From Oligoflexus sp. FD111 (lineage in GTDB: Bacteria; Bdellovibrionota_B; Oligoflexia; Oligoflexales; Oligoflexaceae), in NCBI GenBank assembly GCA_048816425.1, contig JBMDZZ010000028.1, positions 24,766 through 88,765 on the forward strand: DNA of 64,000 nucleotides, written 5' to 3'. The number at the start of each line of letters is the position of its first letter. Position 1 is the first letter of the stretch. Made by a program: the position numbers and the translations under genes. Below are positions 28,158 through 60,998 of this stretch, one piece after another. The notes under the pieces are model-generated. The model made no database searches. It was not told the origin of the DNA and saw nothing but the letters and a program-made list of their open reading frames with translations.

Positions 28158-28158
28158 T

Positions 28159-33620: not shown

Positions 33621-33746
33621 TTCCTGGAAATTTCCAGAATGGATGGCCGATTGTGATGTAGCGACGAGAGCTACCTCAAATATAACCATGTCACCACAAG
33701 TATCCCGTCCAGAAACAAACGATGACGCTGCTACAGGCTCATATTT

Positions 33747-35400: not shown

Positions 35401-36285
35401 ATGAAACTAGGTGGGCATCAGACTTTTCACCTCAGAGAGTCATGGCTTCATAAGGGCATGGCCTCTCTAGTGAACGACCATAGAATTTTCCAAGACGCCA
35501 TGGCGTCAAGTAGGCTTGGAGTTGGCAAGAACATGGTCGAAGCCATGCGGTATTGGCTTCAGGCATGTCAACTTGTAAAGATTGATGACGAATATAGCCT
35601 AAGTAAAGTTGGATCGAAAATCTATGAAGCTGATCCTTTTTTTGAGCTAGATGGTACAGTGCTATTGCTACATTATTTACTCGCAACAAACGAGAGGCAA
35701 GCAACTGCATGGCACTGGTTTTTTAATAAGTTTGGTGCGACCGACTTCGACATAGATGGAGTCCAAGTATACTTAACGACCTATCTTGCAAACACACTGA
35801 AGAAAAATAGTAGCCCAAATGTTATTAGGCGAGAGATACAATGTTTGCTCAAGATGTATACGGATGTCGAGTACAGGATACGGGAAACCCCAGAAACAGA
35901 AAACCCCTCTCCATTTTGTAGGTTTAAAAGCATTCAAAAGGATGGTGAGAAATATCGTAAAGTTGGATTTGACGTTAACTTGATCGATCCACTTATTTAT
36001 AGCTACTGCTTATATCTATTCTGGATAATGACTGAACGCCCAGCAACAATTTCTTTCGAAAATATTTGCAAGCAGCCGGGTTCACCAGGGGTTATCTTTG
36101 GACTTTCGAGTGATAGCAATATCTATATTCTCGAATTAGCAAAGGAAATCGATTCTGCTCCGATAGCAATTAGCAGGAGTGGAGGGTATTTTTCGATATC
36201 AATTGATGAAGAAAAAGCCGCTAAAACACTAGATTTTTATTACGATAAATATTCTGATCTTTTGCAGGAATCAAGATGGCTATAA
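35401..36285 (+). CDS. sspB: SspB-like DUF4007 protein (phosphorothioation-system nickase family)
   Basis: The N-terminus MKLGGHQTFHLRESWLHKG matches the DUF4007 signature as I recall it (GHETF.LR..WL.KG). It is the first gene of a 4-gene block with an ATPase, a PAPS-reductase-like protein and a cysteine desulfurase. Confidence 0.7.
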   Translation: MKLGGHQTFHLRESWLHKGMASLVNDHRIFQDAMASSRLGVGKNMVEAMRYWLQACQLVKIDDEYSLSKVGSKIYEADPFFELDGTVLLLHYLLATNERQATAWHWFFNKFGATDFDIDGVQVYLTTYLANTLKKNSSPNVIRREIQCLLKMYTDVEYRIRETPETENPSPFCRFKSIQKDGEKYRKVGFDVNLIDPLIYSYCLYLFWIMTERPATISFENICKQPGSPGVIFGLSSDSNIYILELAKEIDSAPIAISRSGGYFSISIDEEKAAKTLDFYYDKYSDLLQESRWL

Positions 36286-39200: not shown

Positions 39201-39947
39201 ATCAAAGCAAGGCGAATCCTTGTAGCCATCGACAGCGCTGAAGAACCTGATAAACTTCTCTTCAAAAGTCTTCCCGAATCATTAAGATTTAATACAGAAA
39301 ATGAAGATTACCTGCGGAAACCATTGTTAGTGGAAAAAGAGTTGCAGGAAGCTTTGATTGACGCTAAGCAAGCATATTCAAATCTACTTTTTAAAATTAG
39401 AGATCACCTCGAAGAGGCTATTCAGATACTAAATGACAAATGTCTATCCAAGAAACTCAGAATCGATACCAAAAAAGATCTAGCTGGTTCCTATAAACTT
39501 ATTTTTTCAGCTCTTGAAAGCAGGATTAGAAACCATAAGTTTTCGAAAGTAACGACTCATTTTATAGAACGATTTATGACTTTCGATACCACCAGCCATA
39601 AGCAGTATTTTGTAGAAACTATTGGAGATGTCTTAACTGGAGCCAGTCCTCGAGTTTGGGAGGGTAAGACGATAAACTTATTTCTTTTCACGCTTCATAA
39701 AGTCATGGAGGAAATAATCCATGTTTCTTCGACTGTATCATCAGAACTCGAAGGACATTCTGTAGTTGCAATTACTAATATTAGCAATAACCAGAGTAGA
39801 TACATTGATTTAGGTGCAAAGCAGGGGCTTAAGACTAAGCATCTAAAGCTTAAAAATGAGATACTTGAAAAATTCGAAGATGACTGGTCACCAACAGATA
39901 TCAAAATTCTCCTAGTTGATTTGTTATCGACATTGGATTTAAACTAG
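36276..39947 (+). CDS. sspC: SspC-like large P-loop ATPase (BrxC/DUF499-style)
   Basis: 1223 aa with Walker A FSGSPGLGKST and Walker B-like VFVVYDEFGKY. The start overlaps the sspB-like stop by 10 nt. Confidence 0.65.
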   Translation: MAINIELLPYLADEISLAPSFDRSTNLEADFNNKKKIDTIYISEKFASTLIDIIHSVLNEDSNQRVRVFSGSPGLGKSTFALLLLKILSKNQTTNIRQLLAKAETNNVEELSELLESFITKKRGNKLLPIIINGYEGDIEKAFLHKLEKAFSDADLANEWKELLVKTTDLTSIIRDWKKNYPRVYDQYLSSLNENLLIQKSFESGLRKGQLKNREKFLEICEQVTGRTNANTPSSDVIHLYKSATKLLSERGYGGVFVVYDEFGKYLEKGIHSPSSLNVQFLQDFAEFCDRSGEYQCHLVLITHMSVSQYASQLPINIQNEWAKIEGRFQENSFYDRSVNYYRLIEKVFEKKLSDNKRSKLYRKARSFYSNFVEVFNKVSGLEGFLDAVSVDLIINCFPLHPISLAFLPFLSQKVSQNERTLYTFLTREEDHSLNSFLQQSYAEDEIPLLMPSRLYLYFSNSIKRDLGPGGVYRIGLIAEEALNTVSAKDSLAHELLSIIALSEVIKMPRLAPVNEEFLKASLIGLYTHKDVAKKLKELQEQKLIFYNRFRERFELRQGSSVDLQEELDKGREIKLTSKDLVGIIKKYNNYDYIITKKYNFSHNICRFYETCLISVEELKGKKFRLSPDYDQTDGIVYYILPFDQDELAVARELVDQVKSELVVFILPNKFIECRKDIEELNAINSLYSNKELLATGPLVRKELDFHKSTVLKSIERVLDPVVGRFGIDVTLKYNKIFDNVKCRSFIELQRYLGEVFTHAYSSSIDINSELINKHKVSSSVTLARRIFIQHLIENPDKNELAIEGNGPEKALYYAIKEVSDVVWDNTSNKLKLGPKNKLDQLYKMYQKMLAKSSSGVSFETIIDTFSKPPFGLRKAVIPCYIAIFDLISENQVNHYFQDAYVSNPDGEHYDLIFRHPKLSRIQMTKITDVHEVYLRTVATAFGAKQVDSIPDIVSAIFNWRKAIPEYVKYSDEVSIKARRILVAIDSAEEPDKLLFKSLPESLRFNTENEDYLRKPLLVEKELQEALIDAKQAYSNLLFKIRDHLEEAIQILNDKCLSKKLRIDTKKDLAGSYKLIFSALESRIRNHKFSKVTTHFIERFMTFDTTSHKQYFVETIGDVLTGASPRVWEGKTINLFLFTLHKVMEEIIHVSSTVSSELEGHSVVAITNISNNQSRYIDLGAKQGLKTKHLKLKNEILEKFEDDWSPTDIKILLVDLLSTLDLN

Positions 39948-39979
39948 TACCTATACAAAAGTATTGGGGTCCGTTTTTT

Positions 39980-40798
39980 ATGTCACAATTCTTATACGAC
40001 GCAAATAGGCGTCAAATTTGTCCACTGTCTGGAGGAAAAGATTCAACTGCACTCGCAATTTTTCTGAAAGACAAGATTCCAAATCTAGAGTACGTCTTTA
40101 CTGATACGGGTGCCGAACTCCCTGAGACTTATGAGTATCTCGATAAATTAGAGGCTTTTTTAGGTAAACCAATCGTCCGATTAAATTCTGACAAACCGTT
40201 TGATTATCTTTTGAAAAGGCATGGTGATTACCTACCCTCTCCTAGAGCCCGCTGGTGTACTATTGAAATGAAAATAAAGTCGTTTGAGAAGTTTATCGGT
40301 GATGATCCTATTGAAAGTTATATTGGAATTCGAGCAGACGAAAATCGTGATGGTTATATTTCAAAGAAAGAATCCATAAAACCCCGCTATCCCTTTAAAG
40401 AGCTCGGAATAGACCTTGGGGGAGTGAATAAACTACTCGACCAAGCAGGAATCGGACTGCCTAAATACTATGAATGGCGATCAAGATCGGGGTGCTATTT
40501 CTGTTTCTTTCAAAGAAAAATCGAATGGGTAGGTTTAAAAGAAAGACATCCCGATCTATTTGAAAAAGCAAAAGAATACGAAACCCGAAGCTACAGGGGG
40601 GACGGGGTGAAATTCACTTGGGTTCAAGACTCCCCACTAGAGGAGATCGCGACTAACGCGGAATTTATAAAAGAAAATCATGCCAAAAGAATGGAGAGAG
40701 AGACTAAGAAGCAATCCAACAAACGCCTTTCCGATATTTTTAAAGATGTAGTGTCAGATGACGATATGGAAGACTCTTGTCTAATTTGTGACCTTTAG
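39980..40798 (+). CDS. sspD: SspD-like PAPS-reductase/ATP-pyrophosphatase family protein (DndC-related)
   Basis: The PP-loop is CPLSGGKDST. C-terminal cysteine clusters are SGCYFCFF and SCLICDL. The protein is 272 aa, shorter than canonical DndC. Confidence 0.75.
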   Translation: MSQFLYDANRRQICPLSGGKDSTALAIFLKDKIPNLEYVFTDTGAELPETYEYLDKLEAFLGKPIVRLNSDKPFDYLLKRHGDYLPSPRARWCTIEMKIKSFEKFIGDDPIESYIGIRADENRDGYISKKESIKPRYPFKELGIDLGGVNKLLDQAGIGLPKYYEWRSRSGCYFCFFQRKIEWVGLKERHPDLFEKAKEYETRSYRGDGVKFTWVQDSPLEEIATNAEFIKENHAKRMERETKKQSNKRLSDIFKDVVSDDDMEDSCLICDL

Positions 40799-40933
40799 CA
40801 TCACTATTTCGCGCTAGTACACTAGCGCAATGTCTTTTCCTGCTTGAGTTGTGATCTCAAAAGTAATACTTTGCCATTAGTCTTACTGCATCGCTTCTTG
40901 CGATGAAAAACTTCCAAATTCGAAGCAGATCAG

Positions 40934-42058
40934 ATGGTTGATGCGATTTATCTAGATTACAATGCCACGAGCCCGCTTTCTCCTTCCGTTATAAATTATA
41001 TTAAGGAAGGCATGATTAGAGATTGGGCTAATCCCTCCTCAGAGCATGATGCTGGCTATGAAAAAGCTATTGAAATACGGAAGAGCCGAAGCCGAATAGC
41101 CGATTTTCTTGGGTGCTCGACTAGCCAAATCACATTTACCAGTGGCGCTACAGAATCAATCAATACTGTATTGAGTGCTGATACGCTAGCAAGTCTAGGT
41201 GTTAAAACGGTCATTACCTCACCTATGGAGCATCACGCCACCCTTGATAGGGCGAAATACCTTGAAACAAAGGGTTTTCATATTAAAATGGTCCGGACTT
41301 TACCCACAGGTTCTTTGGATTACGATCATTTAGATCATCTCGCAAGTTTTAGTAAAAAAGCCATTATTTCCCTTCTATATACTAACAACGAGACTGGCAT
41401 AATCAATGATGTTAAAAAAATTTCTTCAATATCTCAACGTCACGGATGTCTAGTTCATATTGATGCCGTGCAGGCTCTTGGCAAAATCAAGTTTAGCTTA
41501 AACGAGCTGGAGGTGGATTTTGCCAGCTTTTCCGGCCATAAAATTGGATCACTTAAAGGAATCGGTATGCTGTATAGAAAGCAGCATGAAATTGTCCCCT
41601 TGATGCATGGAGGCGGACAAGAAAAAGCGCTTCGTCCAGGTACATACAATTTACCAGGTATCAAGTCGATAGAAATGGCGATATCAGATATCGATTTTGA
41701 TGCTATTGAAAAACGAGGATATGAGGCTCGCTTCGCTATCGAACAGCTGTTCAAACAGATCTTTCCTAGCGCCATAGTGAATGGCGCAGAGTGCGATAGA
41801 GTTTATAACACTATCAGTCTCGCCATACCCGAACATTCGAGCAAGGCAATTATGTTAGGAATGTCAAGGAGTGGTATTTATATTTCAACAGGTTCAGCCT
41901 GCTCATCAGGAATTGAAGTTGGAAGCCATGTACTAAAAGAGTTTACTGAGTTTGAAAAGAATTCTATCAGAATTTCGTTTTCTATATCGATGCTGGATCC
42001 ATCTGTAATACATACAATTTCGATGAAATTAAATGATTACAAGGTAAAGTCAATTTGA
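40934..42058 (+). CDS. sspA: cysteine desulfurase (NifS/IscS/DndA-SspA type)
   Basis: Class V aminotransferase fold. The PLP-lysine motif is SFSGHKIGSLKGIG and the catalytic Cys loop is STGSACSSG. Confidence 0.8.
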   Translation: MVDAIYLDYNATSPLSPSVINYIKEGMIRDWANPSSEHDAGYEKAIEIRKSRSRIADFLGCSTSQITFTSGATESINTVLSADTLASLGVKTVITSPMEHHATLDRAKYLETKGFHIKMVRTLPTGSLDYDHLDHLASFSKKAIISLLYTNNETGIINDVKKISSISQRHGCLVHIDAVQALGKIKFSLNELEVDFASFSGHKIGSLKGIGMLYRKQHEIVPLMHGGGQEKALRPGTYNLPGIKSIEMAISDIDFDAIEKRGYEARFAIEQLFKQIFPSAIVNGAECDRVYNTISLAIPEHSSKAIMLGMSRSGIYISTGSACSSGIEVGSHVLKEFTEFEKNSIRISFSISMLDPSVIHTISMKLNDYKVKSI

Positions 42059-42383
42059 TTATCGATTTTGAATTTAAGAGCTTCCCATATGCGTATAGTT
42101 TACCTTCTAAATCTTAAAGTAGCTATGAGAAAAAAAACGCACCAAAGGTGCCCAGGTGGTTTTCTAAAGATGTTCTATTAGCCAAACATTTTTATAAAGC
42201 GTGCCATAAAGAAATTTATTTCAGTGTTAAGTGTTTTGAGGCAGTTGATGATGCGCAATTAGAAATAACTTCATTTCGCTAATTGGGTTGCATCTCAATC
42301 TTGACAGAGTAAAAACTTAGTAATCAAAGGTGTTACTATGAAAATGGTATGGCCTTGCTGATAAATTCTTTAAATGTGATCAA

Positions 42384-42848
42384 ATGATTCTATTTGCAAC
42401 ATCTGCTGATAAAGCAATGATCGCTCTTTTATTTGCTAGCACTGCTATCAGCATTACGCCGAGGGTCAAAAAAATTTCGGAAAATCATGAACACATGGGG
42501 TCTGTTCGAGTTTTAGCAGGCAAAAATCAATTTAGCTTAGATAAGCTTGATATGAGATTCACTTGGCTTTCTAAGAGAAAACTTAAGTCTTTTAAAGTGT
42601 TAAATTGGATCTACAACATGACTAGCTACTTTCACACTAAAAGAGAAATAAGCAGCCACGAGAAAAAATCCCCACCAAAAGCTTATACATTCCCTACAAT
42701 AGAAAGTTCTGCAATCTCCACTAAAAACAAAGATATTATGAAAAGAGAGGAAGTAGGATCTGAGTTCAAATTCACTTTCGAAGTGAAAACTGAGGACTTC
42801 ATGCCGAATTCTAAAGAGAATGACATTTTACAAGGCTCCCGCTCTTAG
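42384..42848 (+). CDS. doubtful hypothetical ORF in the 870-bp spacer between the modification and restriction-like genes
   Basis: 154 aa, Lys/Ser-rich, with one N-terminal hydrophobic stretch. I see no recognisable motif or convincing RBS. Confidence 0.15.
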   Translation: MILFATSADKAMIALLFASTAISITPRVKKISENHEHMGSVRVLAGKNQFSLDKLDMRFTWLSKRKLKSFKVLNWIYNMTSYFHTKREISSHEKKSPPKAYTFPTIESSAISTKNKDIMKREEVGSEFKFTFEVKTEDFMPNSKENDILQGSRS

Positions 42849-42927
42849 ATGGATATGGAGCATCTTTTACATGAGAACAATCCTTCTGACACAAAATAAA
42901 AAATTATAACCTCTTAAGGATGCTTCC

Positions 42928-44700
42928 ATGAGATGGAAAGAAAATAATTGGATAAAGTTTTTAGAAGGATACTGCAAAGGCAATGGGCAGATCCAGGACG
43001 AATATGTCCGGAAAATAGCTTCTGCACTTAGACTCGATGAGCCGCTTGAAATAAAATTTCCTTGGCAAGAAGAAATTCTCCAAAAATTTAAGGATCCAAA
43101 CAATCTGCAAGTTATTATATTGACTGGGACTGCTGGGGATGGAAAAACACGCCTATGTAGAGAAATATACCAGGAAGTTTGTGGAACCAGCTTTTCTGAA
43201 GAGTCATGGAACTCAAAAAGCTATTTTAGTAATGAATTAAGCACGATCGTTAAAGATTTTTCTGAACTGAAGGATGAGAAATCAAAGGTAATTGGTGAAT
43301 TGATAGAAGTGTTAAAAAATGGATTTGCTACAAAACAAATTCTAATCGCAGTGAATGACGGAGTGTTCATAGAAGCTCTAGATAGTTATATTGATGACGC
43401 TAATTTAGCAGATCATAAAAAGGAAGCTAAGTTATTAAAAGAGATAGTAGAAGATAAAATAAACATTGGAATTAGTAATTGTGAAAAGCAGGGACTTATA
43501 AATTTAATAAACCTTTCAAAATTGGATGCAAAAGAAAACTTCAAGTTAATTTTTAAAGCTATCCTTGACAATAGTGGATGGAATCAATGCAAAGATTGTA
43601 TTGGATCTATCGAAAATAGTTGCCCTATCTACTCTAAATATCAGATTTTTAAATCTCGCGCTGAAACAATCGAAAATTTGGCAAATATCATCTTGCTGCT
43701 GCAACTCAATAACCAGCATTTCACAATTAGAGAGCTACTCAATCTTGTATCGAATACTTTAGTGTCATCTATTCCTAAAAGCAAAAAATACCGGATCACA
43801 GACTTTGAGCATTCTAATAGCATTTTTACTTGCAAAACTATATCAACTATAAACGAAATCAACAAAGCGAATATAGAATCTAGCATAGAAGTAGGTTTTT
43901 GGGGCTTGAACCTCGGTCCTCAAAAGTCCTTATCTAAAAGGCCTTATTCAGAGATAAATAAACTGAGGTTTGGTGATACTTCCAGCAATTACTGGGATAG
44001 CCAGATATCTAAGCCGGAAGAAAGGCATTTTACTATACCAATTGATGAATTTCTTCGAGGAAGCGAAAAATCTGCTATTTACAGCGAATCTAGCAAAACA
44101 TGGATGCCAACTCTTCGTCGATCAAGAATGCAATTATATGCTTTTTGCAAAGACAATGATGAAAAGCTGTTTCATCTACAAAAGTATCCTTCATATGGCA
44201 TATATAAGGAAAAAATTTATAATCAGCTCACGGCAAAAAAAATGTGTAGTGATTTAAAGGTCAAAACGTCAATAATTCTTGCCTTGAACAGGGCTTTTCA
44301 TGGGCGCTTTATATCTGATAAAGCCGGGGAACTTTTCATTCCCGAGAAAGGCCAGGGATCTTTAGTATCTACTACAGTATTTCATGGTGAAGAAATTCGT
44401 GAAAAATATATTACGATTGAAACTTTAGGCAACGATTTTTCGTTATCGGGCGCTAGAATTGAACCAATAGTAAAAATATTTGTAGATAAGCAAGAAGTAA
44501 AAGTTTCGTTAACTGTTGAGGTCTTTGACTACCTTGATCAAGTATCCAAAGGTGCCCCACCTAATACAGCTGATCCACGAATCTATAAAAAACTTTGTAT
44601 TCTTCGATCTAAGCTAGCTTCAATGATTCGACCTAATAGAAGAATTGAAACCTATAAAATTAGTAATGGCCAATTTAAAATTGTCCCAATGGAGTTTTGA
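42928..44700 (+). CDS. DptF/SspF-like P-loop protein (first gene of a DndFGH/SspFGH-type PT-dependent restriction trio)
   Basis: 590 aa with an N-terminal Walker A ILTGTAGDGKTRLC. The assignment rests on its position, size and the identity of its two downstream partners. Confidence 0.55.
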   Translation: MRWKENNWIKFLEGYCKGNGQIQDEYVRKIASALRLDEPLEIKFPWQEEILQKFKDPNNLQVIILTGTAGDGKTRLCREIYQEVCGTSFSEESWNSKSYFSNELSTIVKDFSELKDEKSKVIGELIEVLKNGFATKQILIAVNDGVFIEALDSYIDDANLADHKKEAKLLKEIVEDKINIGISNCEKQGLINLINLSKLDAKENFKLIFKAILDNSGWNQCKDCIGSIENSCPIYSKYQIFKSRAETIENLANIILLLQLNNQHFTIRELLNLVSNTLVSSIPKSKKYRITDFEHSNSIFTCKTISTINEINKANIESSIEVGFWGLNLGPQKSLSKRPYSEINKLRFGDTSSNYWDSQISKPEERHFTIPIDEFLRGSEKSAIYSESSKTWMPTLRRSRMQLYAFCKDNDEKLFHLQKYPSYGIYKEKIYNQLTAKKMCSDLKVKTSIILALNRAFHGRFISDKAGELFIPEKGQGSLVSTTVFHGEEIREKYITIETLGNDFSLSGARIEPIVKIFVDKQEVKVSLTVEVFDYLDQVSKGAPPNTADPRIYKKLCILRSKLASMIRPNRRIETYKISNGQFKIVPMEF

Positions 44701-44704
44701 TATT

Positions 44705-46195
44705 ATGAAACAATTAGAATTCAGAGATATCAGAAAGGACTATAAACCCAACCTTAACCATGCAATTATAGAACAAATTTGGGGACATCGATTCAGAGTA
44801 GAGCAAAACCCAATGCTACTCCTTTGTGAGCTTTTGTGCGTACTTGAAAATCAGTTTTTCTCTAAAGAAACTGGAGAGATTCAGCAAGTTTTTTCTCCAG
44901 AACATACCCATCTAAAATACAAACATTCAGATAAGATTGGTTTACGATTTTTATTATATAAAAATGATAAATTGGAAAGCATTAAGAAAAGTAGTCAAAA
45001 TGAAAAAGAAAAATTTAAGATGCAAATTGAATATTTGAAAACTTCTGACCAACTTTCAGATTCGGACATCACTCATCTAGAGAAACAGTTCGACTCATTT
45101 GATAGCTTCTATAATTCATGCAAGATTTTGAGCTCATTAACTTTCGATCCATTGTCAAATAAACGATGGGGATCTAAGTTTGTATATCCCTTAAGTCGTG
45201 ATCTTTTATGGAGTGACTACAACAACATTAAGAAAAACTTCGATAGGCGATTTTTCGCTAGAGGAGGAGAACTTATCTATTTGATGCTTTCTAGAACATC
45301 GGAAACCAAAAGAGATGAACTAGAGCAGCTATTCGATGATTGGATGAAGAGCAAAGAGGATTCTTATTCTAAACTGGTCAAGATTATATATCCGGCGGTT
45401 ACCGAGCGTGATAAAGTAAACAAGCCTACCAGGCTTGGGCACCTACCATATGTTAGTTCAAGCTGCTTTGAAACACTTGCCGATGATCTTATTACAATCC
45501 TAAAGCTTGATTTAGAAAGGCTAGATAAAGCTAAACTTATGGCTGACATGATTGGTTTTCATATAGGCAATTATATTTTAACTATAGGTGAGATGTTCTC
45601 GGATAGCAATTCATCTGTCATAGAAAAGAAACCTCATTTCATTGTTGAGATTCCACTAAAGTCTTCAAACAGCATCAGGAAAAGTTCTATTGAAAGTATT
45701 TCCAGGCAAAAGAACAAATTAAAAAATACACTTAACAATCTCTTCCCCGCAATTGTGAATAATTATTTTTTTGAAAGCTTAGATGTCGAAGGTATAGATC
45801 AAGAAAAAAAAGAGGCAAAAAAATCAGCTGAAAAATACCTCTCAGACCACATTATGCCTTACCCTAATGCGTGTTTTCGGCACATTGGTTTTGTTTCAAA
45901 AAAACATTCGAGAAGCTATAGATACGTGTTTTCAGAAGATTTTCTTCAATCTATTGTTATAACAGTTCTTGGCGCAGGGAAAAGACTAGAATTTTCCAAA
46001 TTCATTAAGACTCTTGAGTATCGCTATAATATCTTTGTCGACAGAGTCCCGGATTCTAGCTATTCGATTTTACAAACCGACCTGAATAAAAACACGAAAA
46101 ACTTGTCAAATCTACTCTATCAAATGGGAATGCTTCGCCACCTCTCGGATGCATGTAGCTATGTTATCAACCCATATAGAGAGGATGCAATTTGA
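44705..46195 (+). CDS. DptG/SspG-like protein (middle gene of the trio)
   Basis: ATG 44705 lies 5 nt after the previous stop, with GGAG 11 nt upstream. 496 aa with no motif I can name. Its stop overlaps the next start (ATTTGA). Confidence 0.45.
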   Translation: MKQLEFRDIRKDYKPNLNHAIIEQIWGHRFRVEQNPMLLLCELLCVLENQFFSKETGEIQQVFSPEHTHLKYKHSDKIGLRFLLYKNDKLESIKKSSQNEKEKFKMQIEYLKTSDQLSDSDITHLEKQFDSFDSFYNSCKILSSLTFDPLSNKRWGSKFVYPLSRDLLWSDYNNIKKNFDRRFFARGGELIYLMLSRTSETKRDELEQLFDDWMKSKEDSYSKLVKIIYPAVTERDKVNKPTRLGHLPYVSSSCFETLADDLITILKLDLERLDKAKLMADMIGFHIGNYILTIGEMFSDSNSSVIEKKPHFIVEIPLKSSNSIRKSSIESISRQKNKLKNTLNNLFPAIVNNYFFESLDVEGIDQEKKEAKKSAEKYLSDHIMPYPNACFRHIGFVSKKHSRSYRYVFSEDFLQSIVITVLGAGKRLEFSKFIKTLEYRYNIFVDRVPDSSYSILQTDLNKNTKNLSNLLYQMGMLRHLSDACSYVINPYREDAI

Positions 46196-49100
46196 AAAGC
46201 TTAGCCCGTTACTATTTCAACAAAATCGTGAGAGAATACCAAGATTGGCTTCCTACCAATTCTACCCACGGTACACCCGGTAGAGTCATTCTCAGTGAGT
46301 TTGATTCAGATATTGTTAGTGAGATCTTTGATACATTCCATTCTTCTGACCTGAAGATTTCAGAGCCAGGGAGCGAGGATGGCATAATACTCCTTCTAGA
46401 AGATCATGAAATATATGTAGACATCAAAGAAAAAAAATATTCATTCGCCGACTTAACCCGAGAGCGAAATCGGGCCGGCAAGTTTTTTTGTGTCATGTTT
46501 ATAGCTGAAACAAAGCCTACTCACGAACAAGTTGCTAGTATTCATCAAGAAAGTATCTACGAAGAAGGAGAACTTGAAGAATGGGTAAATATATCGCTGT
46601 CCTATCATGCAAAAAGAGATCACTTCCCAATATCTCATACACGAGATATCGCTAAATTTCTAAACGAGTTGACACATAAAAAGTGGAATCATAGACCATC
46701 TATAAAGTTGAAGGAAATTAGCAGTTTCATTGCATCGGTAATTGATGACACTATCCAAGATGGTCTATTCTGGGATGCGCTTGGAAGAAATTTTACTAAA
46801 TTGGGAGGAATAAATCGCCTTGATAATTGTAGGAAGTTAGAAGGTGCAAAGTCTAAGTATAGATCTATTTTTCGAAAAGAGATCTCAAATACTCTCATTC
46901 CCGATCAGAACTTTTGGAGAGCTGTATACAAAGATCGGGAAGTAGAAAAATCAGAAATAGAAGATAACTTAAAAGACATTCTAGAAGAAGACTCAATTGA
47001 TTACTCATGTTTCTGTCAATCAATATCTGCATATTTCGAAAGCTACTTTGCTAACAGACCAGATACAAGTCTCCTTCAGCAGGAGATAAAAGACAAGTTC
47101 GATTCAACCTTTCCCTTCACCTCTGTACTTCATGCAAAAAAAACTAAATCTAAACTTCAGATTGGTGGGGAGACAAAAAAATTCTTATTAGAAAATGATG
47201 TAAATATTTCGGAAAATGATGAACTACTCCTTGAAAGCTTAGACTCCCGAGATAACAAGCCCGATAGGAATGAAATTAGGAGTTTCTACTTCCCTCGGCA
47301 GAGGCTACTTTCTACTGATCCTAAGTTAGATAAAGCATGGAAGAAAGAAGTCAGCTCAAGCAAAGATGTGGAATGTAGTAATTTACTTGATGGTATTCTC
47401 AAAGTATTGTCTAGCTACATACTTTTGACTGATATTGGCAACGATTCAGTATTGTTACGACAAAGAAGGGATAGAAGAAAGTCATCTCTTCAAAAAAAGA
47501 ACGTTGATGCCCTAAATTTCTTTCTTCATGAATATAAAGACCTCGACAAATTCTGGAGTCTTTTTGGTGATAAATTTGAACTCGATATAAAAGTATTTGA
47601 GTATGCTAATGATTTAGCCGATGAAAAACTAAAAGTTAGGAGTGGTAAACAAGCAAATATACTTGAATTTGAAATACTTCTTTATTCCATAGATCCGAAA
47701 TCGCCCTCTCAAGTATGGCACCTAAAATGGATCTTTGATCACAATGGCTTCGAAAGCATCAAACATTATGAATTGAATCATCTAAAATCAAGAAGAGGCT
47801 ACTACCACAAGCATGAATTAGCAATCGATCCTCTGTTTGTAAAACGTGCAGATAAGAACCCAAGTATAAAAAACAAAGAGATGTTTCAGGCGAGCGGGGC
47901 ATCGCGAAAACCTGGTTCAGTGGTCAAGAAAACAGATAAGCCAGATGATCTAATTTCAAAATTCCTTAAAGATCTTCAAAAGCACGGTCGACTATCAGAA
48001 CATGACCTAAATATACTAGAAAATTCTTATGAGAAATTTTATGAAGATTGGAAGCAGGCAATAGATCTGAATTCGACTACACCTATTACATCTGACCTTA
48101 CTTTCTTCAATTCTAGTTTCAATAGCTTTATTGACCTTATTGATAAAAAAACCTTAGAAGCTGAACACAAGAGAGAATTGTTTAAGCATATAAAAGCTGC
48201 CCACACTATTTCAGTAAAAGACACTCCTAATTATCTTTTATATCTTCCCTGGTCGCCCTTTAGTCTGCTAATGACATGGATGAAAAACAAAATTTTTCAT
48301 CAGATCGCAGGTTCTTATAAAAATGGATCGTTTAGAATTGGAAATCTTGATGATGGGGTGTTTCCTGATATTATAACAGAACTGGTGGAAAGCTTCGGCA
48401 ATACTTTTTATATAAATGATCACTCCGCCCCTCTTATATCAACGGCTTCGATCTGTGGCTATTATGAGTTTAGCTCTCTTGCTGATTCTAGAAATTCACT
48501 TTCAATCAAAGAAATAAAAAACGTCATGAATTCGGTGCTTCAAAAATTTTTGGAAGTCTATCCAAATCAGCGAGATCATATCGATATACTATTCGAGGGA
48601 ATAGGTTCATTTGAGCATCTTTTTGCTATCTATGAAGAAGCCTTAAAATTCTCAAGTGAACAAGAAGATCATTTTTCGATTCGAATACTATTCCACAGCA
48701 AGAATAATCGGGAGTTTTTAGATCTTTCATATGAAAGAATTACCGAAACATTCAACTCTCATTTATTAGACACTGATATTAAGATAGTGATAGTTGACAA
48801 CATTGAGTCCATTGAAGAGAACGAACTTGATTTAATTTTTAGCTTTGATCCTTTGTCTGTTGAAAAAAAATTGGCCCAGGACTCTGAAAAATTCTGCCTT
48901 TCGAATGAAAATTATGCGTTTTGGGAATATTGCAATACTAGAAAACTACCCTCAAACAAACTGTCTTTAAAAAGCTCTTTTGCGGTAAATAATCATAGAA
49001 TGGATTCAGTTTCAGCTGTCTTTCACAAGATTTCGATGATAACAGCTGCTAGGGATCGAACTGAGTCTTATTGTTTTGAAGTCTCACAGGACGTCATTAA

Positions 49101-51396
49101 GAATGAATTTTCCAAATCACTAAAAAAGTGCACCTGGCTAATAGTGTACGACTATTTATTGTCAAAAGAAACCTGCGCTGGAACTGCAACCGGGGCCAAT
49201 TCAAATAGAGTTTTACGATACGTTCAGGGAGAGGGCACAAAACGCTCCATGGCGATTGTTACTAGCAAGGACATTGACACCATAAAATCCAAGATATCAA
49301 ATAAGCTTCGGGATTTAAACCTTTCCACTGCCGGCAAAGTATCGAGCCTATGTGAGGAGCTATTTTCTATTTCTAATTCCTTCAGTGGCGATACTTTACT
49401 TAAAACCAGCGGTAATGGAAATTTTTCTCACGACCTTATAGGTAATGTCGGAACTATTCGATTAGTGGAAAGCCTGTTTGAGAATGCAAGAAAAATTGCT
49501 CCAATTTTTTGGGTTCACTTAGATGATTATGTCAATTGGTTTAAGTCATCAACTGAAGACGATTCCTTTAGGTATTTGGGGAAAAAGCGTTCATATATTT
49601 CTGATCTTTTAGGAATATTTTTAGATAGAACTGACGATAAAATAAGTCTCAATCTTATCGTTTGTGAATCCAAGTTGACAAATGGTTCGGATGATCAAAA
49701 GATTAAATCATGCAAGCAACTAGTAGCGACGTGTAGTTTAATCAAAGGTATGTTAGCTAGCTCGAAACTCTTCGATTACAAATATTGGGTAAATAAATTT
49801 TTGGAATTTGTTATTGAGAACTTTGACTTCAATCCTAATTTGCTGTCGTTTCATGATCTTATGAAAGTAAATGCGGAGGATATGGACATTTTTCTATCAG
49901 GAATTTCTTCAATACTGCTGTATGGAGATAATTCAGAAGAAACGAGATTTGAGAAAGTGAAAGAGGAAAACTATTTGCGACAGATTATTGTCTCTACAGA
50001 AGACACTAGAAAGATTTTTGATTCGATAAGTCGTGGTGAACATCCTGTAATTAAAGACCTCTACAACAACTTAGAGCCCATAAAACTAAATAGCTCTTCC
50101 CTATTAGGACATATAGTAGCTTATCCAAAAATCGATAACACTCAGAAAATTCCTGAAAGACCATCTTCTGAAGTTAAAGAAGTAAATGAAACAGACAACT
50201 TAGATAATACAACCGAAGAGGCGCTCCCGGTCTCTCGATGCTTGAGCCTTTTAAATAAAGCGATAAATTTTCTAGACGAAAATACTCTCACTGTTCAAGA
50301 TACAGACCCGGTTAATATCGATAGAGTTCAAGAAGGCATACGAACAATATTCTCTCATCATAACTTACCATCCAAGTTTTTAGAATCGCAAACTACTCCT
50401 AACTCAGTCGTAATAAAAGTAGCCGGAAACATAAAAATATCTGCAAAAAAAGTTCTTTCTATGCGAGATAATTTTGTCTCGGTAGCGAGTTTACATCTTC
50501 GAAAGGTTTATCCAGAACCAGGCTGCATGGTCTTGGTTTTCGATCGCAATACCAGAGAACGAGTCCTCTATGTTTCTCTTTTAAGAGAATCTTTAAAAAA
50601 TCGAAGAACAACCCTCGAATTAGACTTCAACAACAAAATCATTCTTGGTCTAGATGAGTTTAAAAAAAATATCTGTTACTATAGGCTGGATGGCCCAAGC
50701 CCTCATGCTCTAGTCGGAGGACAGACAAAGTCAGGAAAATCGGTTTTGATGAATAATATGATCATGGATCTTATTCTGACTAACGATCCAAAATATCTTA
50801 AACTCAGACTATTTGATCCAAAACAAGTTGAATTTTCGTCCTACAGCGAAGCGCCACATCTCGCACACCCAGTGGTAGTCGATAAGCAAGAAGCTGTTCA
50901 CTGGCTTAAAGATATCGAAGACTTAATGAACGCACGCTACGAAAGCTTCTCTAAACTAAACTTAAAAGACATAGAGTCTTACAATAATAAATACCCAGAG
51001 AATAGGATGTCTCGACACATCGTTTTCTTTGATGAGTTAGCTGACTGGATTTTGGACGATCATTTTAAGGAGAATGCTAAGGATATTATAATTAGAGTTT
51101 CTTCCAAAGGGAGAGCTGCAGGTGTACATCTAGTAATAGCAACTCAAAGGCCAAGCAATGATGTCGTCTTCCCACTTCTAAGGGCGAATTTGGATACTAA
51201 AATTGCATTGAAAGTCGATCGAGATCAAAACTCGGTTATCATTTTAGGGGAATCTGGCGCCGAAGACCTTTTAGGGTATGGGCATGGTATAATTAAAACA
51301 GAGGGTGAAACCCACTATATTCAAGGTGGCTTTACTGAGGCCTCAATTTTTGAGCAGCTTATAGACCTAGCTATTGAATTTTGGAGAAACCAATAA
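46192..51396 (+). CDS. DptH/SspH-like giant protein with a C-terminal FtsK/HerA-type motor ATPase
   Basis: 1734 aa with a TTG start overlapping the upstream stop. C-terminal motifs are Walker A VGGQTKSGKSV, Walker B IVFFDELAD and HLVIATQRPS (the FtsK/SpoIIIE hallmark). Confidence 0.7.
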   Translation: MKSLARYYFNKIVREYQDWLPTNSTHGTPGRVILSEFDSDIVSEIFDTFHSSDLKISEPGSEDGIILLLEDHEIYVDIKEKKYSFADLTRERNRAGKFFCVMFIAETKPTHEQVASIHQESIYEEGELEEWVNISLSYHAKRDHFPISHTRDIAKFLNELTHKKWNHRPSIKLKEISSFIASVIDDTIQDGLFWDALGRNFTKLGGINRLDNCRKLEGAKSKYRSIFRKEISNTLIPDQNFWRAVYKDREVEKSEIEDNLKDILEEDSIDYSCFCQSISAYFESYFANRPDTSLLQQEIKDKFDSTFPFTSVLHAKKTKSKLQIGGETKKFLLENDVNISENDELLLESLDSRDNKPDRNEIRSFYFPRQRLLSTDPKLDKAWKKEVSSSKDVECSNLLDGILKVLSSYILLTDIGNDSVLLRQRRDRRKSSLQKKNVDALNFFLHEYKDLDKFWSLFGDKFELDIKVFEYANDLADEKLKVRSGKQANILEFEILLYSIDPKSPSQVWHLKWIFDHNGFESIKHYELNHLKSRRGYYHKHELAIDPLFVKRADKNPSIKNKEMFQASGASRKPGSVVKKTDKPDDLISKFLKDLQKHGRLSEHDLNILENSYEKFYEDWKQAIDLNSTTPITSDLTFFNSSFNSFIDLIDKKTLEAEHKRELFKHIKAAHTISVKDTPNYLLYLPWSPFSLLMTWMKNKIFHQIAGSYKNGSFRIGNLDDGVFPDIITELVESFGNTFYINDHSAPLISTASICGYYEFSSLADSRNSLSIKEIKNVMNSVLQKFLEVYPNQRDHIDILFEGIGSFEHLFAIYEEALKFSSEQEDHFSIRILFHSKNNREFLDLSYERITETFNSHLLDTDIKIVIVDNIESIEENELDLIFSFDPLSVEKKLAQDSEKFCLSNENYAFWEYCNTRKLPSNKLSLKSSFAVNNHRMDSVSAVFHKISMITAARDRTESYCFEVSQDVIKNEFSKSLKKCTWLIVYDYLLSKETCAGTATGANSNRVLRYVQGEGTKRSMAIVTSKDIDTIKSKISNKLRDLNLSTAGKVSSLCEELFSISNSFSGDTLLKTSGNGNFSHDLIGNVGTIRLVESLFENARKIAPIFWVHLDDYVNWFKSSTEDDSFRYLGKKRSYISDLLGIFLDRTDDKISLNLIVCESKLTNGSDDQKIKSCKQLVATCSLIKGMLASSKLFDYKYWVNKFLEFVIENFDFNPNLLSFHDLMKVNAEDMDIFLSGISSILLYGDNSEETRFEKVKEENYLRQIIVSTEDTRKIFDSISRGEHPVIKDLYNNLEPIKLNSSSLLGHIVAYPKIDNTQKIPERPSSEVKEVNETDNLDNTTEEALPVSRCLSLLNKAINFLDENTLTVQDTDPVNIDRVQEGIRTIFSHHNLPSKFLESQTTPNSVVIKVAGNIKISAKKVLSMRDNFVSVASLHLRKVYPEPGCMVLVFDRNTRERVLYVSLLRESLKNRRTTLELDFNNKIILGLDEFKKNICYYRLDGPSPHALVGGQTKSGKSVLMNNMIMDLILTNDPKYLKLRLFDPKQVEFSSYSEAPHLAHPVVVDKQEAVHWLKDIEDLMNARYESFSKLNLKDIESYNNKYPENRMSRHIVFFDELADWILDDHFKENAKDIIIRVSSKGRAAGVHLVIATQRPSNDVVFPLLRANLDTKIALKVDRDQNSVIILGESGAEDLLGYGHGIIKTEGETHYIQGGFTEASIFEQLIDLAIEFWRNQ

Positions 51397-51586: not shown

Positions 51587-53620
51587 TTACACTCTAGTAG
51601 TGGTTTCATTCCTCAATGTAAAAAATCTAAATCCCTTAATCTCTAAATCTTTTTCACTTAGTGCCTGGTTTAACTCTTCGAAGTTTTTCGGCTCTCGTCC
51701 TTCCAATATCTTCATTAGCCTCGCGTCAAAATTTCTTTGTTTTTCATATTCTAAGAACGAACTATCCATAAATAAAGACTTGTTATATAGCGCAGTTGGC
51801 TTGAATTGGCCGGAGTAATCAAAAAAACTTATTTCTTGTGTCGCTAGATTGACTTTTACCCTTTCTTTTAAAGCTGGGACTGATTGACTATCAAAACAAT
51901 CGTATTTCAAAAATGTACATTTATGTGAGCCTATATGGACTTTAATTAAGTCAATATTATCGAGATCCCCAAATAGTTTTTCAGCACAGCCTACATATAT
52001 TCTGATCAATAAGGGTAGACGTCCAAGAAATTTTCTGTGAAAAGTATAGGATTTATGTGGCAAAAATAAACCGCTGTTGATTTCTCCTAATGAATCTCTA
52101 CAACACTTATCAATATCATTAACATTTGCAATTTTACTCAATTCTTGCAAACCGCGTTCTTTGGCGCGACTGTAACTTCCAAAAAACTCGCTAACATCCT
52201 TTTGCAGAGAATCAGGTAAATTTTTATATGGCTTATTTTTGCCAAAGTGAGACAATGCAAAATATAGTATTAAATCTTCAATTCTTTCTTCGCGAGCCTT
52301 TTTGAATAGTGAAGTGTCATAATAATTGCTTATAACTTTAAAAATTTTCTTAGGTGGACCAATTAATTCTGATAATCGTTCGATTTTTTGCACTTCTTGG
52401 ATCGCAGGTATTCGTCCAAGATTAAGACAAGTCTTCCAAAATTGATCAACTTGATCTTTGTTTTCATCAATTTTGAGTTTGAGTTGATCCAATTTTTCCT
52501 TAGGAAATGAACTTAAAGTTTCCCACTTGGAATGCCGTCTATTTCTTTTTTCGTAAAATAATTGCTCTTCGTTCTTATCTTTAAAAACAAAGAATATACC
52601 AGGGGATATGGGAATTACTGGATCAGCAAGAATTTCTTCAAGAAAATTCTTAAGTTCCGCTTGGGTATAGTATTTTTGGAAAGTATTTCTTGATGTGATG
52701 ATACCATCTTTGTAAGGAGTATATCTATTGACGAAAGACTCTGTGCCTATCATAGCTGAAATAACTAAAAGTTTATCTGTTAAATGATAGGCTTTTTTTA
52801 TAGCTTCTATTCGTTCTTTTTTTTCTTCAATTACGTTAATGACAAATCCCAAATTTACGATATCAGCAGATCTAATATCGGAATCAGGATTAAAGTGAGG
52901 ATCCCATCCTTCCGCTTTAATACCGAATGCTTTTAGTTCACGTAGGTCATCACCTCTACCACACCCATAGTCAAAAACTGTATACCTTCCATCAAGATAG
53001 CCATGCTTGCCAAGGCACTTAATGGGAGCTGAAAAATCACTGCGTGAGATTGCCGTTTTATATCTATGAATATCAGTATCTAACGAGGACTTTCTGAAAA
53101 GCCGACCATCTAATATTTGGTAGCCTTTACTCTGTATTAAGTGTTCCCAATTTTTTTTGAATCCAATGTTCTTAGTATCCTCATAGAGACCAGCATTTAC
53201 TCCTTCTTGAGTAATTTCTGAGAATTCTAGATAGTAAGGATGGTCATTAGGAACAAAAAGCTCTTTGCGATGAAGGATTGGCGGATTAAAAGACGATTTG
53301 AATGATAACTCCCGCATCTTACCTGATGTGAGATCAACCGTGACGCTTTTTTCAAGAGTTGGATATGCATCTTCAAAAAAACTTGGGTAGTATAGCAGTG
53401 TGATTTTGAATACAAACTTGTGAATTTTTAGAACATTCCAGTTGGGGTCTTTCAATTCAAGTTGCGCCGTCACCTCTTCAAGAAATCGGTTTAAAGAGGC
53501 TGGAATTCTGCACAACGCGTCTTTGTGCAAATATATTGAATCTGGTAAGTGTTTTCCAATTTTGATAGATTTAATCAGATTAGAAAAATTTTCATGTTTT
53601 AAGCTTAAATGAAACATCAT
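51587..53620 (-). CDS. large SAM-dependent methyltransferase-like protein of the 'DNA phosphorothioation-associated putative methyltransferase' type
   Basis: 677 aa. The central class I SAM motif is VFDYGCGRGDDLRELKAFGIKAEGWDP, with long flanking regions. It is convergent with the DptH-like gene. The family name is recalled from NCBIfam/TIGRFAM naming. Confidence 0.55.
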   Translation of the reverse strand: MMFHLSLKHENFSNLIKSIKIGKHLPDSIYLHKDALCRIPASLNRFLEEVTAQLELKDPNWNVLKIHKFVFKITLLYYPSFFEDAYPTLEKSVTVDLTSGKMRELSFKSSFNPPILHRKELFVPNDHPYYLEFSEITQEGVNAGLYEDTKNIGFKKNWEHLIQSKGYQILDGRLFRKSSLDTDIHRYKTAISRSDFSAPIKCLGKHGYLDGRYTVFDYGCGRGDDLRELKAFGIKAEGWDPHFNPDSDIRSADIVNLGFVINVIEEKKERIEAIKKAYHLTDKLLVISAMIGTESFVNRYTPYKDGIITSRNTFQKYYTQAELKNFLEEILADPVIPISPGIFFVFKDKNEEQLFYEKRNRRHSKWETLSSFPKEKLDQLKLKIDENKDQVDQFWKTCLNLGRIPAIQEVQKIERLSELIGPPKKIFKVISNYYDTSLFKKAREERIEDLILYFALSHFGKNKPYKNLPDSLQKDVSEFFGSYSRAKERGLQELSKIANVNDIDKCCRDSLGEINSGLFLPHKSYTFHRKFLGRLPLLIRIYVGCAEKLFGDLDNIDLIKVHIGSHKCTFLKYDCFDSQSVPALKERVKVNLATQEISFFDYSGQFKPTALYNKSLFMDSSFLEYEKQRNFDARLMKILEGREPKNFEELNQALSEKDLEIKGFRFFTLRNETTTRV

Positions 53621-54155
53621 GTTCGCTAATCCTTACGGGATGTAATCTGCCATTTTTTTCTTTGAGCCAGTATATTTCTCGTGAACAGTCTTCACCTAGA
53701 CTAACATGGATAGGACGGTCCTTTCCGTAGTAGTATATGCGATCAAAATGGCAGTTACCTGTAATCCAATCTAAGACAATTCTCATGTCACTGTTAGCTA
53801 CAATGAAATCACAGGCTGCACCGCCCCTTTTACAGATTCTATTTCCATGATTGTTACACTCGTATCCAGCATGTTGATCTCGATCTGGAGCTATACGGGG
53901 GCGCTTATTTTTCTTAATTCTGTTAGCCAAGCTTGACGAGCAAAAACCGTAAGTCAAATGTAGTTCGCCAAATGCCTCCCATACAGGATCTAGAATCGTA
54001 CGGCCTAGATCTTGTATTGCGCTCCAAGTCCTCGGGTCTGATGGCAAATTACTTATCGTTGTCTTCTTCCATGTTTCACTACATTCAAAAAAGTCTCTAA
54101 AAGTAAAATATTTGCAACAGTGCTCATCAGGATCAAAGGGAAATGGAGGTGGCAC
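53592..54155 (-). CDS. peptidase M15/LAS-fold (zinc D-Ala-D-Ala-carboxypeptidase-like) small protein, coupled to the methyltransferase-like gene
   Basis: GTG start with AGGA 9 nt upstream. The pattern FTFRDFFEC ... ILDPVWEAFGELHLTYGF ... DQHAGYE ... GAACDFIV ... DRPIHVSL fits the H...D...H arrangement of M15-like proteins. It overlaps the downstream gene by 29 nt. Confidence 0.4.
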   Translation of the reverse strand: MPPPFPFDPDEHCCKYFTFRDFFECSETWKKTTISNLPSDPRTWSAIQDLGRTILDPVWEAFGELHLTYGFCSSSLANRIKKNKRPRIAPDRDQHAGYECNNHGNRICKRGGAACDFIVANSDMRIVLDWITGNCHFDRIYYYGKDRPIHVSLGEDCSREIYWLKEKNGRLHPVRISEHDVSFKLKT

Positions 54156-54716: not shown

Positions 54717-54740
54717 ATTGAGTATAGAAAGCAGATCAAT

Positions 54741-56179
54741 TGAGGTGCGTAGAACATAATTGGAGAAAATCGACTCTTTAACTAAGCTATTATAATTGTG
54801 AAGGAGATTCGATCGATGCAAAAGTAGAGACCCCCGTCGTTCTATCCCACCCCAGCAAAAAGCCGACATTGCCTGCGATGTCCAGCCCGCTTCATCAATC
54901 CAGCAAGGGCTTGACCAGTTTGGAATTACCAGTAGCTTGTATTACAAATGGTCAAGACTGCTTGAGGTTGGAATGAACGATAGCCTTCGCAACTCAAAAC
55001 CCCTAAAATCTGTCGACTTGAAGCGCCTAGAGGCTGAAAATAGGCAGTTCTCAACCAATCACTGGAATTGACAAGTTTAAAAAAAGATTGAGCTTGGATC
55101 CATGAAGGAGGGCCTCAGAGTGAGCTACGAATATAAAGTTGAAGTAATCGAATTTGTCGAACACCAACAGGAGCTTGGTTAATCGCAGAGCAAGACTTTT
55201 GGAACTCTAGAGATTTCGCCTTCTACTTACTATAGCTGGAATAAGGCTATCCTTAATGCAGAAAAGCCTAAGAAACCAGCCAAGCCACATCATATGAAAT
55301 TGACTCCAGATGAAAAAGAACTCATCATCGCAACAAAAAAGACAATCCAACGATGAGGCATAGGCTGATACAGGGCTTGAACCAAGCTGAAGGCTGCTAT
55401 ATTTCGCCAAGCTCGGTTTTTACCGTCCTAAAGGCCAATGGGTTGGTTGAGCCTTTTGAGCGGCGTGAAGCGCCGTGGAAAGAGCCTAAATATGAAGTGC
55501 GAGCAAGGAACTTGTTGTGGGGAACAGATTGGACGAAGTTCAAGATCAATCACGAAACCTGGCAGCTTTTGACTCTCATTGACTTTTTTTCCAGAAAAGT
55601 CATCGCTTGGGATATTCAGCCTAACATCAGTGCGGGCCATATCAAGGCACTATAGCCAAGCGCTTGCAGCCCGGCAACTAACGAACAAAAAGCAAAAGCC
55701 GAAGCTTCGGGCGGATAAAGGTTCCCCCTAACACTTCTTGGGTCATCAAGGAGTTTATTGCAAACCTTGCAGGCTAGCTATCGCTTGCGCTTGTCAGAGG
55801 TCCTGCCGACAATGCAATAACAGAGCGGTTTTACGGCACCAAAAAGCAAGAAGAGATCTTTGTGGTTGGTAGCTACAATCAGCTAAAACTGAAATAGGAA
55901 ACTATATCGAATTTTATAATGAATATAGGTCACATCAAGTGATATGGAATTTTACGCCCGACTATGTTCATGAGCTGAACAATAAATCGAAAGTATAGGC
56001 CGAGCTAGAGACCATGAAATATGACACCAAACGTCGTCGCCGTGAGTGCTGGTAATTAAAAGAAGTTTACGAATTACAGCAGAAATTCAAGCAAGAGTTG
56101 ACGAAGGCGTCAAGTCAGAATATCACACAAACTTGATCGATTCTCTCCAAGTTCGACTTAAGCACCACATAATATCGTT
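54741..56179 (+). mobile_element. IS3-family insertion sequence, copy B (1439 bp), pseudogenised, same orientation as copy A
   Basis: It has the same termini as copy A (TGAGGTGCGTAGAAC ... GTTCGACTTAAGCACCACA). orfA reads MQK* and carries an internal deletion. The orfB-like frame (REAPWKEPKYEVRARNLLWGTDWTKFKINHETWQLLTLIDFFSRKVIAWDI) is broken by stops. Confidence 0.75.
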
Positions 56180-58926: not shown

Positions 58927-58927
58927 T

Positions 58928-60976: not shown

Positions 60977-60998
60977 GATATAGATCCATACAAGTATA

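Follow-up and report, generated by a model that had tools for sequence, protein, structure and literature searches.

A stretch of 64,000 nucleotides (nt) from Oligoflexus sp. FD111 (the window) carries three contiguous genes on one strand which we identify as sspF, sspG and sspH, an unlabelled, clear copy of a known anti-phage restriction module. With sspB, sspC, sspD and sspA upstream they form, judged by sequence, a complete, divergent and previously unannotated SspBCDA-SspFGH system of a known kind. It is highly probable that sspFGH is the restriction half of an SspBCDA-SspFGH defence based on phosphorothioate (PT) modification and located on a horizontally acquired Oligoflexus island. The SspH sequence agrees at 100% identity with NCBI MFW7382187.1, a protein of an Oligoflexus sp. 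metagenome-assembled genome, Oligoflexus belonging to Bdellovibrionota. In public records SspF (MFW7382185) and SspG (MFW7382186) are called “hypothetical protein” and SspH “FtsK/SpoIIIE domain-containing”; all three genes can now be labelled.

A preliminary description made from the letters of the window had proposed three tightly linked open reading frames (ORFs) of 590, 496 and 1734 aa at positions 42928-51396. All three are intact and follow each other in the order F-G-H on the plus strand, with tight, operon-like junctions and a Shine-Dalgarno sequence before the sspG and sspH starts. The gap between sspF and sspG, given as 5 nt, is in fact 4 nt (TATT), and the overlap of sspG and sspH within ATTTGA, with a TTG start, was found as described and spans 4 nt. 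In the mechanical ORF list the middle ORF begins at TTG 44645 (516 aa). We prefer ATG 44705 as the start, because GGAG lies 10 nt upstream, homologues align from residue 4 and the public call is 496 aa. For sspH, the TTG start is supported by the preceding Shine-Dalgarno sequence GAGAGGA and by an N-terminus common to 15 aligned homologues, 14 of which begin with MKSLA or MRSLA and one with VKALA. As full-length homologues share 48-56% identity with the products, we take the three ORFs to be real genes and not chance ORFs. The AT-richness noted earlier was also observed (34-37% GC in the region versus 39-46% in the flanks).

The family assignment comes from profile searches, which the preliminary description had proposed and which returned strong similarity for each protein. 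SspF matched PADLOC PDLC02797 (E=9.1e-240; residues 4-567 aligned to all 568 positions of the profile), SspG matched PDLC02800 over the entire profile (E=3.6e-191) and SspH matched PDLC02806 (E=6.5e-159); residues ~314-801 of SspH also matched a second SspH model, PDLC02803. The description had left the choice between a DptFGH-like and an SspFGH-like complex. The latter is borne out by these very strong matches and by SspB, C, D and A upstream; the former is not, since no DptF/G/H or Dnd F-H profile matched the three proteins at E<=0.01 in PADLOC and NCBIfam, both presumably containing Dpt models, in a search run without a positive control. The module is thus SspFGH rather than DptFGH, because the SspF/G/H profiles match strongly and the Dpt/Dnd profiles do not. 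This agrees with the first paper on SspFGH, according to which SspFGH and DptFGH lack significant sequence identity (PMC8092258).

The suggestion that the proteins may be distant from characterised members holds for SspH only, as measured by distance from the best profile, and not for SspF or SspG. The N-terminal ~960 aa of SspH fit PDLC02806 poorly, with 529 bits overall, versus 752-2278 bits for four other relatives; a fifth relative, best on a different SspH model, scored 500. Because four of the five score higher, window SspH is assigned on profile score to a divergent branch.

A search of 5.8 billion proteins gave only 26 clusters (90% identity) for the SspH subfamily, and window SspH is 43-48% identical to the 25 others, the nearest at 48%. 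Vibrio, Thalassotalea and Aurantivibrio are the sources of these relatives, together with marine metagenomes. We compared six related loci (L001-L006), all of which (6/6) encode a DUF4007 SspB, an ~1100-aa SspC and a PAPS_reduct SspD, followed in F-G-H order by three products ~597, ~500 and ~1770 aa long. Identity with the Aurantivibrio locus is 56% for SspF, 52% for SspG and 48% for SspH. A genome scan for SspF relatives with the single protein found none, because the closest are only ~55% identical. In L001 (Aurantivibrio plasticivorans) a 756-aa GmrSD_N/GmrSD_C protein (15329-17599) comes after sspH; it is probably SspE, which would make L001 an SspFGH + SspE locus, and 36 strains are recorded as carrying both (PMC8092258).

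The modification genes sspB, C, D and A (35401-42058) lie on the same strand as sspFGH. The restriction genes had been placed “immediately downstream” of them: downstream is correct, immediately is not, sspF beginning 869 nt after sspA. In the related loci the distance from sspD to sspF is only ~25 nt. A 154-aa ORF in the spacer (42384-42848) matched no family in PADLOC, NCBIfam or Pfam, the spacer itself gave no Rfam match, and scans for promoters, terminators and tRNAs gave nothing above chance; public accession numbering has room for one gene call there. DndC appeared only as a weak local match to SspD (1.5e-5 in PADLOC), and the neighbours of sspFGH are SspB/C/D and not dndBCDE.

Between SspB and its counterparts in the related loci identity is only 25-29%, and SspC and SspD are 24% and 50% identical to their Aurantivibrio counterparts. 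Since SspF/G/H reach 48-56%, the identities indicate that the target-selecting modification subunits diverged, or were exchanged, far more than the restriction genes. The low SspB/SspC values suggest module exchange or fast evolution of these subunits, and the PT motif at the window locus is possibly a different one.

SspF carries the N-terminal Walker A motif GTAGDGKT reported earlier (residues 67-74 by translation, nt 43126-43149), invariant in 7 sequences, together with the segment ILIAVNDG, which resembles a Walker B motif, and three invariant clustered Cys residues (C221/C224/C232); in Pfam it gave weak P-loop matches only. The middle protein had been said to hold no nameable motif, which stands except for its C-terminal ~90 aa, which match NCBIfam MAD7 (E=5.1e-8). 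Likewise, the SspH motor resembles PADLOC mad8 (E=5.8e-18), also of the methylation-associated defence system (MADS). These matches are local and do not come near the score that the family demands (32 bits versus a cutoff of 410), and other MADS components are absent; they suggest an adaptor-plus-FtsK-like-ATPase pair common to SspGH and MADS. DndG reportedly resembles SspB, whereas window SspG has no profile similarity to it. The idea of SspG as a DndG/SspB-like triple winged-helix protein gained no support, as hhalign gave no relation to SspB (probability 0.07%), a weak, underpowered negative obtained with shallow profiles (Neff 1.8). Pfam searches at E<=1 on segments of SspF, SspG and SspH returned noise only, and no PDB sequence relatives of the three proteins were found outside the FtsK motor.

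The FtsK-type motifs announced for the end of the last protein are all present. GGQTKSGKS, the motor Walker A, occupies SspH residues 1509-1517 by translation (nt 50716-50742), and the Walker B FFDELAD (1612-1618) and ATQRPS (1650-1655) are both invariant in the family alignment. Among PDB sequences the motor matched FtsK 2ius (E=5e-32), and its model matched FtsK structures by Foldseek with E~3e-20 and template modelling (TM) scores of 0.70-0.75 over ~400 columns at 24-25% identity. The C-terminal ~385 aa of SspH therefore superpose on the alpha-beta motor of FtsK/SpoIIIE. This likeness is restricted to the motor: NCBIfam PRK10263 scored 119.9 bits versus a cutoff of 1566, SspH ends ~25 residues past the motor, and a 1350-aa SspH-specific N-terminal region is fused to it. 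The AlphaFold2 model of residues 940-1734 had a mean predicted local distance difference test (pLDDT) score of 64. The prediction alignments were shallow (25 sequences), because searching again from the SspH alignment brought up the same 26 clusters.

The N-terminal ~1300 aa of the large protein had also been described as lacking a nameable motif. This is true of residues 1-1010, which have no Pfam family and no significant PDB fold match (Foldseek best E=0.067, with weak AAA+/Rossmann-methyltransferase noise), and not of residues ~1040-1290, where we found a candidate nuclease site. Its D...ExK codons lie at nt 49603-49674, and the candidate residues are invariant in an alignment of 16 SspH homologues. 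Distant relatives (21-26% identity), collected by an exhaustive HMMER search and including several truncated gene predictions, keep D1138 in 8/8 proteins covering the site and ExK in five, with Glu at position 1081 in 9/9. AlphaFold2 modelled the region as an alpha-beta-beta-beta-alpha unit (pLDDT 81-91), in which D1081 belongs to the helix before the strands, D1138 stands where one strand starts, E1159-x-K1161 is part of the next strand, and the helix after it contains K1172, K1175 and Q1176. Because the conserved residues and the predicted topology make up the classic PD-(D/E)xK arrangement, we infer that the D1138/E1159-x-K1161 domain is the nuclease of the system. In this architecture of the large subunit the FtsK motor is confirmed, and the nuclease before it is predicted from the D...ExK motif and the modelled topology; the two are joined by a linker (~1300-1350) that varies between homologues and is modelled with low confidence. 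We also observed a 798-aa “mini-SspH” (P0095), in which FtsK_SpoIIIE comes right after the nuclease-like 966-1190 region and the ~960-aa N-terminal region is absent. Since it has both domains without that region, it suggests that nuclease and motor are the conserved core of SspH. Free-standing proteins made of the 966-1190 domain are not claimed, the small matches looking mostly like truncated or frameshifted gene predictions.

What the module may do can be read from Vibrio anguillarum FF-93. There, SspABCD (SspBCD plus a cysteine desulfurase) places single-strand PT marks on host DNA, and SspFGH damages PT-free DNA and blocks phage DNA replication. Defence requires SspF, SspG and SspH, and SspFGH is toxic without the modification genes; SspBCD relieves this toxicity, also when it is a heterologous set from E. 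coli, and DndBCDE does not (PMC8092258). In the library searched, the experimental literature on SspFGH amounts to this one paper, which names no nuclease. The FF-93 system, SspBCD(+IscS/SspA)-SspFGH (Wang et al., mBio 2021; PMC8092258), resembles the window locus in its operon-like three-gene cassette beside sspBCD, in the Walker A of the first protein and in the FtsK/SpoIIIE-like end of the third, and the closest relatives of the window proteins include Vibrio species. It differs in its host, as Bdellovibrionota is not among the taxa that the main text of PMC8092258 names as enriched. It also differs in gene order, as sspA of the window stands between sspD and sspF and is followed by the 869-nt spacer. 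Finally, window SspB/SspC are very divergent (24-28%), and the nearest database relatives of SspFGH are at 43-56%.

In the mechanism that we propose SspH would act as the effector: the FtsK-like motor at its C-terminus, probably a ring as in FtsK, would pump double-stranded DNA, and the D1138/E1159-x-K1161 domain beside the motor would nick or cut this DNA. SspF, as a P-loop NTPase, and SspG would give nucleotide-dependent control and could possibly recognise PT, halting motor and nuclease on self DNA, by analogy with reports on DndFGH (PMC10853773). The N-terminal 1000 aa of SspH probably hold DNA-binding or subunit-docking domains without a solved relative.

Downstream of sspH, two convergent genes complete the ssp island, a TIGR04096 putative methyltransferase and a 187-aa upstream partner. 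The TIGR04096 gene accompanies sspH in 7/7 loci (the window and L001-L006) and is convergent with and directly adjacent to it in the window and in 5/6 related loci. The methyltransferase is 46% identical to its Thalassotalea copy and the 187-aa protein 41% identical to the Thalassotalea protein in the same position. The small partner is kept in the three loci with the long methyltransferase form (672-678 aa) and carries the motifs DQHA, ICKRGGAACDF and GKDRPIHVS. It gave no Pfam, NCBIfam or PADLOC match, and a Pfam search at E<=1 with it and with the methyltransferase N-terminus returned noise only. The literature searched holds almost nothing on the TIGR04096 methyltransferase, and the SspFGH paper makes no mention of it (PMC8092258).

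The methyltransferase is probably an accessory gene of this SspFGH subfamily. A larger reading, in which the system goes beyond seven genes, with the methyltransferase as a functional accessory and SspH carrying a PD-(D/E)xK nuclease at D1138/E1159/K1161, is tentative and in our view rather unlikely as a whole. It is allowed by the presence of the methyltransferase in 7/7 loci and of candidate catalytic residues kept down to ~21% identity in the relatives that cover the site. If true, the methyltransferase, with the small partner in some loci, could write a second epigenetic mark or else modulate SspFGH. An essential role is disfavoured, as plasmids with cloned iscS-sspBCD and sspFGH were enough for defence in E. 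coli (PMC8092258).

The ssp block is bracketed by two decayed IS3-like insertion sequence (IS) copies, 85.4% identical over 1460 nt and in direct orientation. They enclose exactly sspBCDA-sspFGH and the two convergent genes, 19.5 kb in all, in an arrangement that resembles a decayed composite transposon. Transposase ORFs of both copies are fragmented; the left one matched HTH_Tnp_1 (E=1.4e-4) below the Pfam cutoff (22.5 versus 24.1 bits), and a third IS3-like fragment lies at 32762-32973. The low GC content agrees with horizontal acquisition of the block. Outside it the window forms a defence island, with PbeA, PbeC, a HerA-like ATPase, an McrC fragment, NOV_C/PDC-S36, PDC-S11 and Fic.

Several points weigh against a PT-dependent SspBCDA-SspFGH system with SspH as its nuclease. 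PT modification, restriction and toxicity at the Oligoflexus locus are predictions from the behaviour of the FF-93 family. Modification and restriction modules have, on identity values, separate histories, since SspB/SspC are 24-28% identical to those of loci whose SspFGH are at 48-56%, and the functional match between them is assumed. The 869-nt spacer splits sspA from sspF, so that co-transcription with the modification genes is an assumption only. As to the nuclease, a profile of the region found no match in Pfam or among PDB sequences, and Foldseek with the model of residues 940-1734 gave motor-domain matches only, the motor dominating the list.

The same divergence of SspB/SspC (24-28%) from partners whose SspF/G/H are at 48-56%, indicating independent module histories, and the same spacer would also agree with a self-standing SspFGH that does not read the PT mark of sspBCDA, their adjacency reflecting clustering in a defence island that also holds PbeA/C, HerA and others. 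Decoupling from modification has been argued for DndFGH (PMC10853773), and sspH has a more constant neighbour in the methyltransferase. We nevertheless consider this improbable: sspBCD stands beside sspFGH in 6/6 related loci, a single pair of IS copies encloses sspBCDA, sspFGH and the methyltransferase together, and the toxicity of characterised SspFGH is specifically relieved by SspBCD (PMC8092258).

Less probable still is that the module is DptFGH/DndFGH, partner of the double-strand PT system DndABCDE. The sizes and order are similar, and so is the architecture: a P-loop protein, a middle protein and an ~1700-aa effector with a nuclease, in SspH a candidate domain, and then a HerA/FtsK-class ATPase, as described for DndH (PMC10853773). 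DndFGH and the characterised SspFGH are both toxic when PT is absent (PMC10853773, PMC8092258). The DndH C-domain structure 7es4 was even among the Foldseek matches (E=3.2e-5, rank 40), with a poor fit, however (TM 0.34, root-mean-square deviation 14 Å). Against the missing Dpt matches stand SspF/G/H matches at E<1e-150, and five distant SspH-type relatives match SspH models only, with no DptH. DndFGH shows no detectable profile similarity to window SspFGH, and the helicase-like and methylase-like domains of the DndH type were not recovered above noise by Foldseek in the SspH N-terminal region. DndFGH also goes with Dnd genes for double-strand PT, whereas window SspFGH adjoins genes of the single-strand Ssp type, sspB/C/D and not dndB-E.

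We give an equally slight probability to the locus being no longer active, a remnant left by a composite transposon in decay. The degenerate IS3-like copies, with their fragmented transposase ORFs and 85% mutual identity, would agree with decay, as would the truncated McrC fragment nearby. The nine ssp-island ORFs, in contrast, are full length relative to homologues, have no frameshifts and retain every family-invariant motif residue.

A reading of the large protein as an FtsK/TraB/TcpA-like translocase that serves a mobile element in DNA transfer or segregation, with two accessory proteins and no part in restriction, can practically be dismissed: the SspH motor matches FtsK, EssC/EccC, plasmid TraB and TcpA, TraI or TraG genes occur near some related loci and distant SspF relatives lie on conjugative plasmids, yet scores are far below family cutoffs (as for PRK10263), the motor is preceded by 1350 SspH-specific residues, each of the three proteins matches a defence-system profile, and no conjugation genes were found among the scanned window ORFs, several ORFs, two of them very large, lying outside the Pfam scan.

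With SspBCDA-SspFGH as the preferred reading, the known range of SspBCD-SspFGH extends to a Bdellovibrionota (Oligoflexus) genome. The D1138/E1159-x-K1161 site beside the FtsK motor offers a concrete target for mutagenesis, and the constant TIGR04096 neighbour is a candidate accessory gene open to testing. Two observations, the island framed by IS copies and a divergence of SspB/SspC far above that of SspD, F, G and H, bear on how modules for PT modification and for restriction are exchanged; the general view of the workings of such systems stays as it was.

Table 1. Features of the ssp island, of SspH and of the surrounding defence genes, in window positions unless a related locus is named.
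Feature	Positions	Strand	Remarks
sspB	35401-36285	+	DUF4007, DNA-nicking/target-selection subunit; PADLOC E=4.9e-57, Pfam DUF4007 E=1.2e-64
sspC	36276-39947	+	1223-aa BrxC-like ATPase; PADLOC SspC E=8.9e-155
sspD	39980-40798	+	PAPS-reductase-like ATP pyrophosphatase; PADLOC E=3.9e-110, Pfam PAPS_reduct
sspA	40934-42058	+	class-V aminotransferase/cysteine desulfurase, sulfur donor; PADLOC E=5.6e-92, Pfam Aminotran_5 E=2.1e-58
Spacer between modification and restriction genes	42059-42927		869 nt; holds 154-aa ORF
sspF	42928-44700	+	590 aa, ATG; P-loop NTPase
sspG	44705-46195	+	496 aa, ATG; C-terminal ~90 aa MAD7-related, otherwise without named domain
sspH	46192-51396	+	1734 aa, TTG; 4-nt overlap with sspG
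SspH residues 1-1010, conserved multi-domain region	46192-49221	+	AlphaFold2 mean pLDDT 72.6
SspH ~1040-1290, candidate PD-(D/E)xK nuclease domain	49309-50061	+	D1081, D1138, E1159-x-K1161, Q1176
SspH ~1350-1734, FtsK/SpoIIIE-type alpha-beta DNA-translocase motor	50239-51393	+	Pfam FtsK_SpoIIIE PF01580 E=3.7e-34
TIGR04096 DNA phosphorothioation-associated putative methyltransferase	51587-53620	-	convergent with sspH; NCBIfam E=1e-185
187-aa protein, upstream partner of methyltransferase	53592-54155	-	conserved in Thalassotalea, V. parahaemolyticus
Methyltransferase region, L001	20852-22729		related locus
Methyltransferase region, L002	15404-18123		related locus
Methyltransferase region, L003	16369-18966		related locus
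Methyltransferase region, L004	15307-17205		related locus
Methyltransferase region, L005	15339-17213		related locus
Methyltransferase region, L006	15353-17227		related locus
Decayed IS3-like element, left copy	33746-35198	+	left border of ssp island
Decayed IS3-like element, right copy	54740-56169	+	right border of ssp island
Fic-domain protein, SoFic-like	5779-7299	+	
DUF4268/NucS_C protein	25213-26385	-	PADLOC PDC-S11
Truncated McrC fragment	30354-30824	-	profile positions 216-318 only
NOV_C/DUF3883 protein	30935-32032	-	PDC-S36, E=3e-46
PbeA (PLD + SF2 helicase)	56324-58465	-	E=3e-236
PbeC (DndD-like ABC ATPase)	58928-61069	-	E=7e-137; separate Pbe cluster

Among the other genes of the window, two very large ORFs on the plus strand, 4-3885 (1293 aa, from the window edge) and 15174-21428 (2084 aa), had no PADLOC match. 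At 26973-30294 (+) a HerA-like ATPase (DUF87; PADLOC HerA E~2e-18) follows a 394-aa partner without family match, and the two may be a further two-gene defence system. A Pbe-type system (56324-61422, minus strand) adjoins the ssp island; a 154-aa ORF between PbeA and PbeC and a 97-aa upstream ORF had no PADLOC match and could be PbeB and PbeD, respectively.

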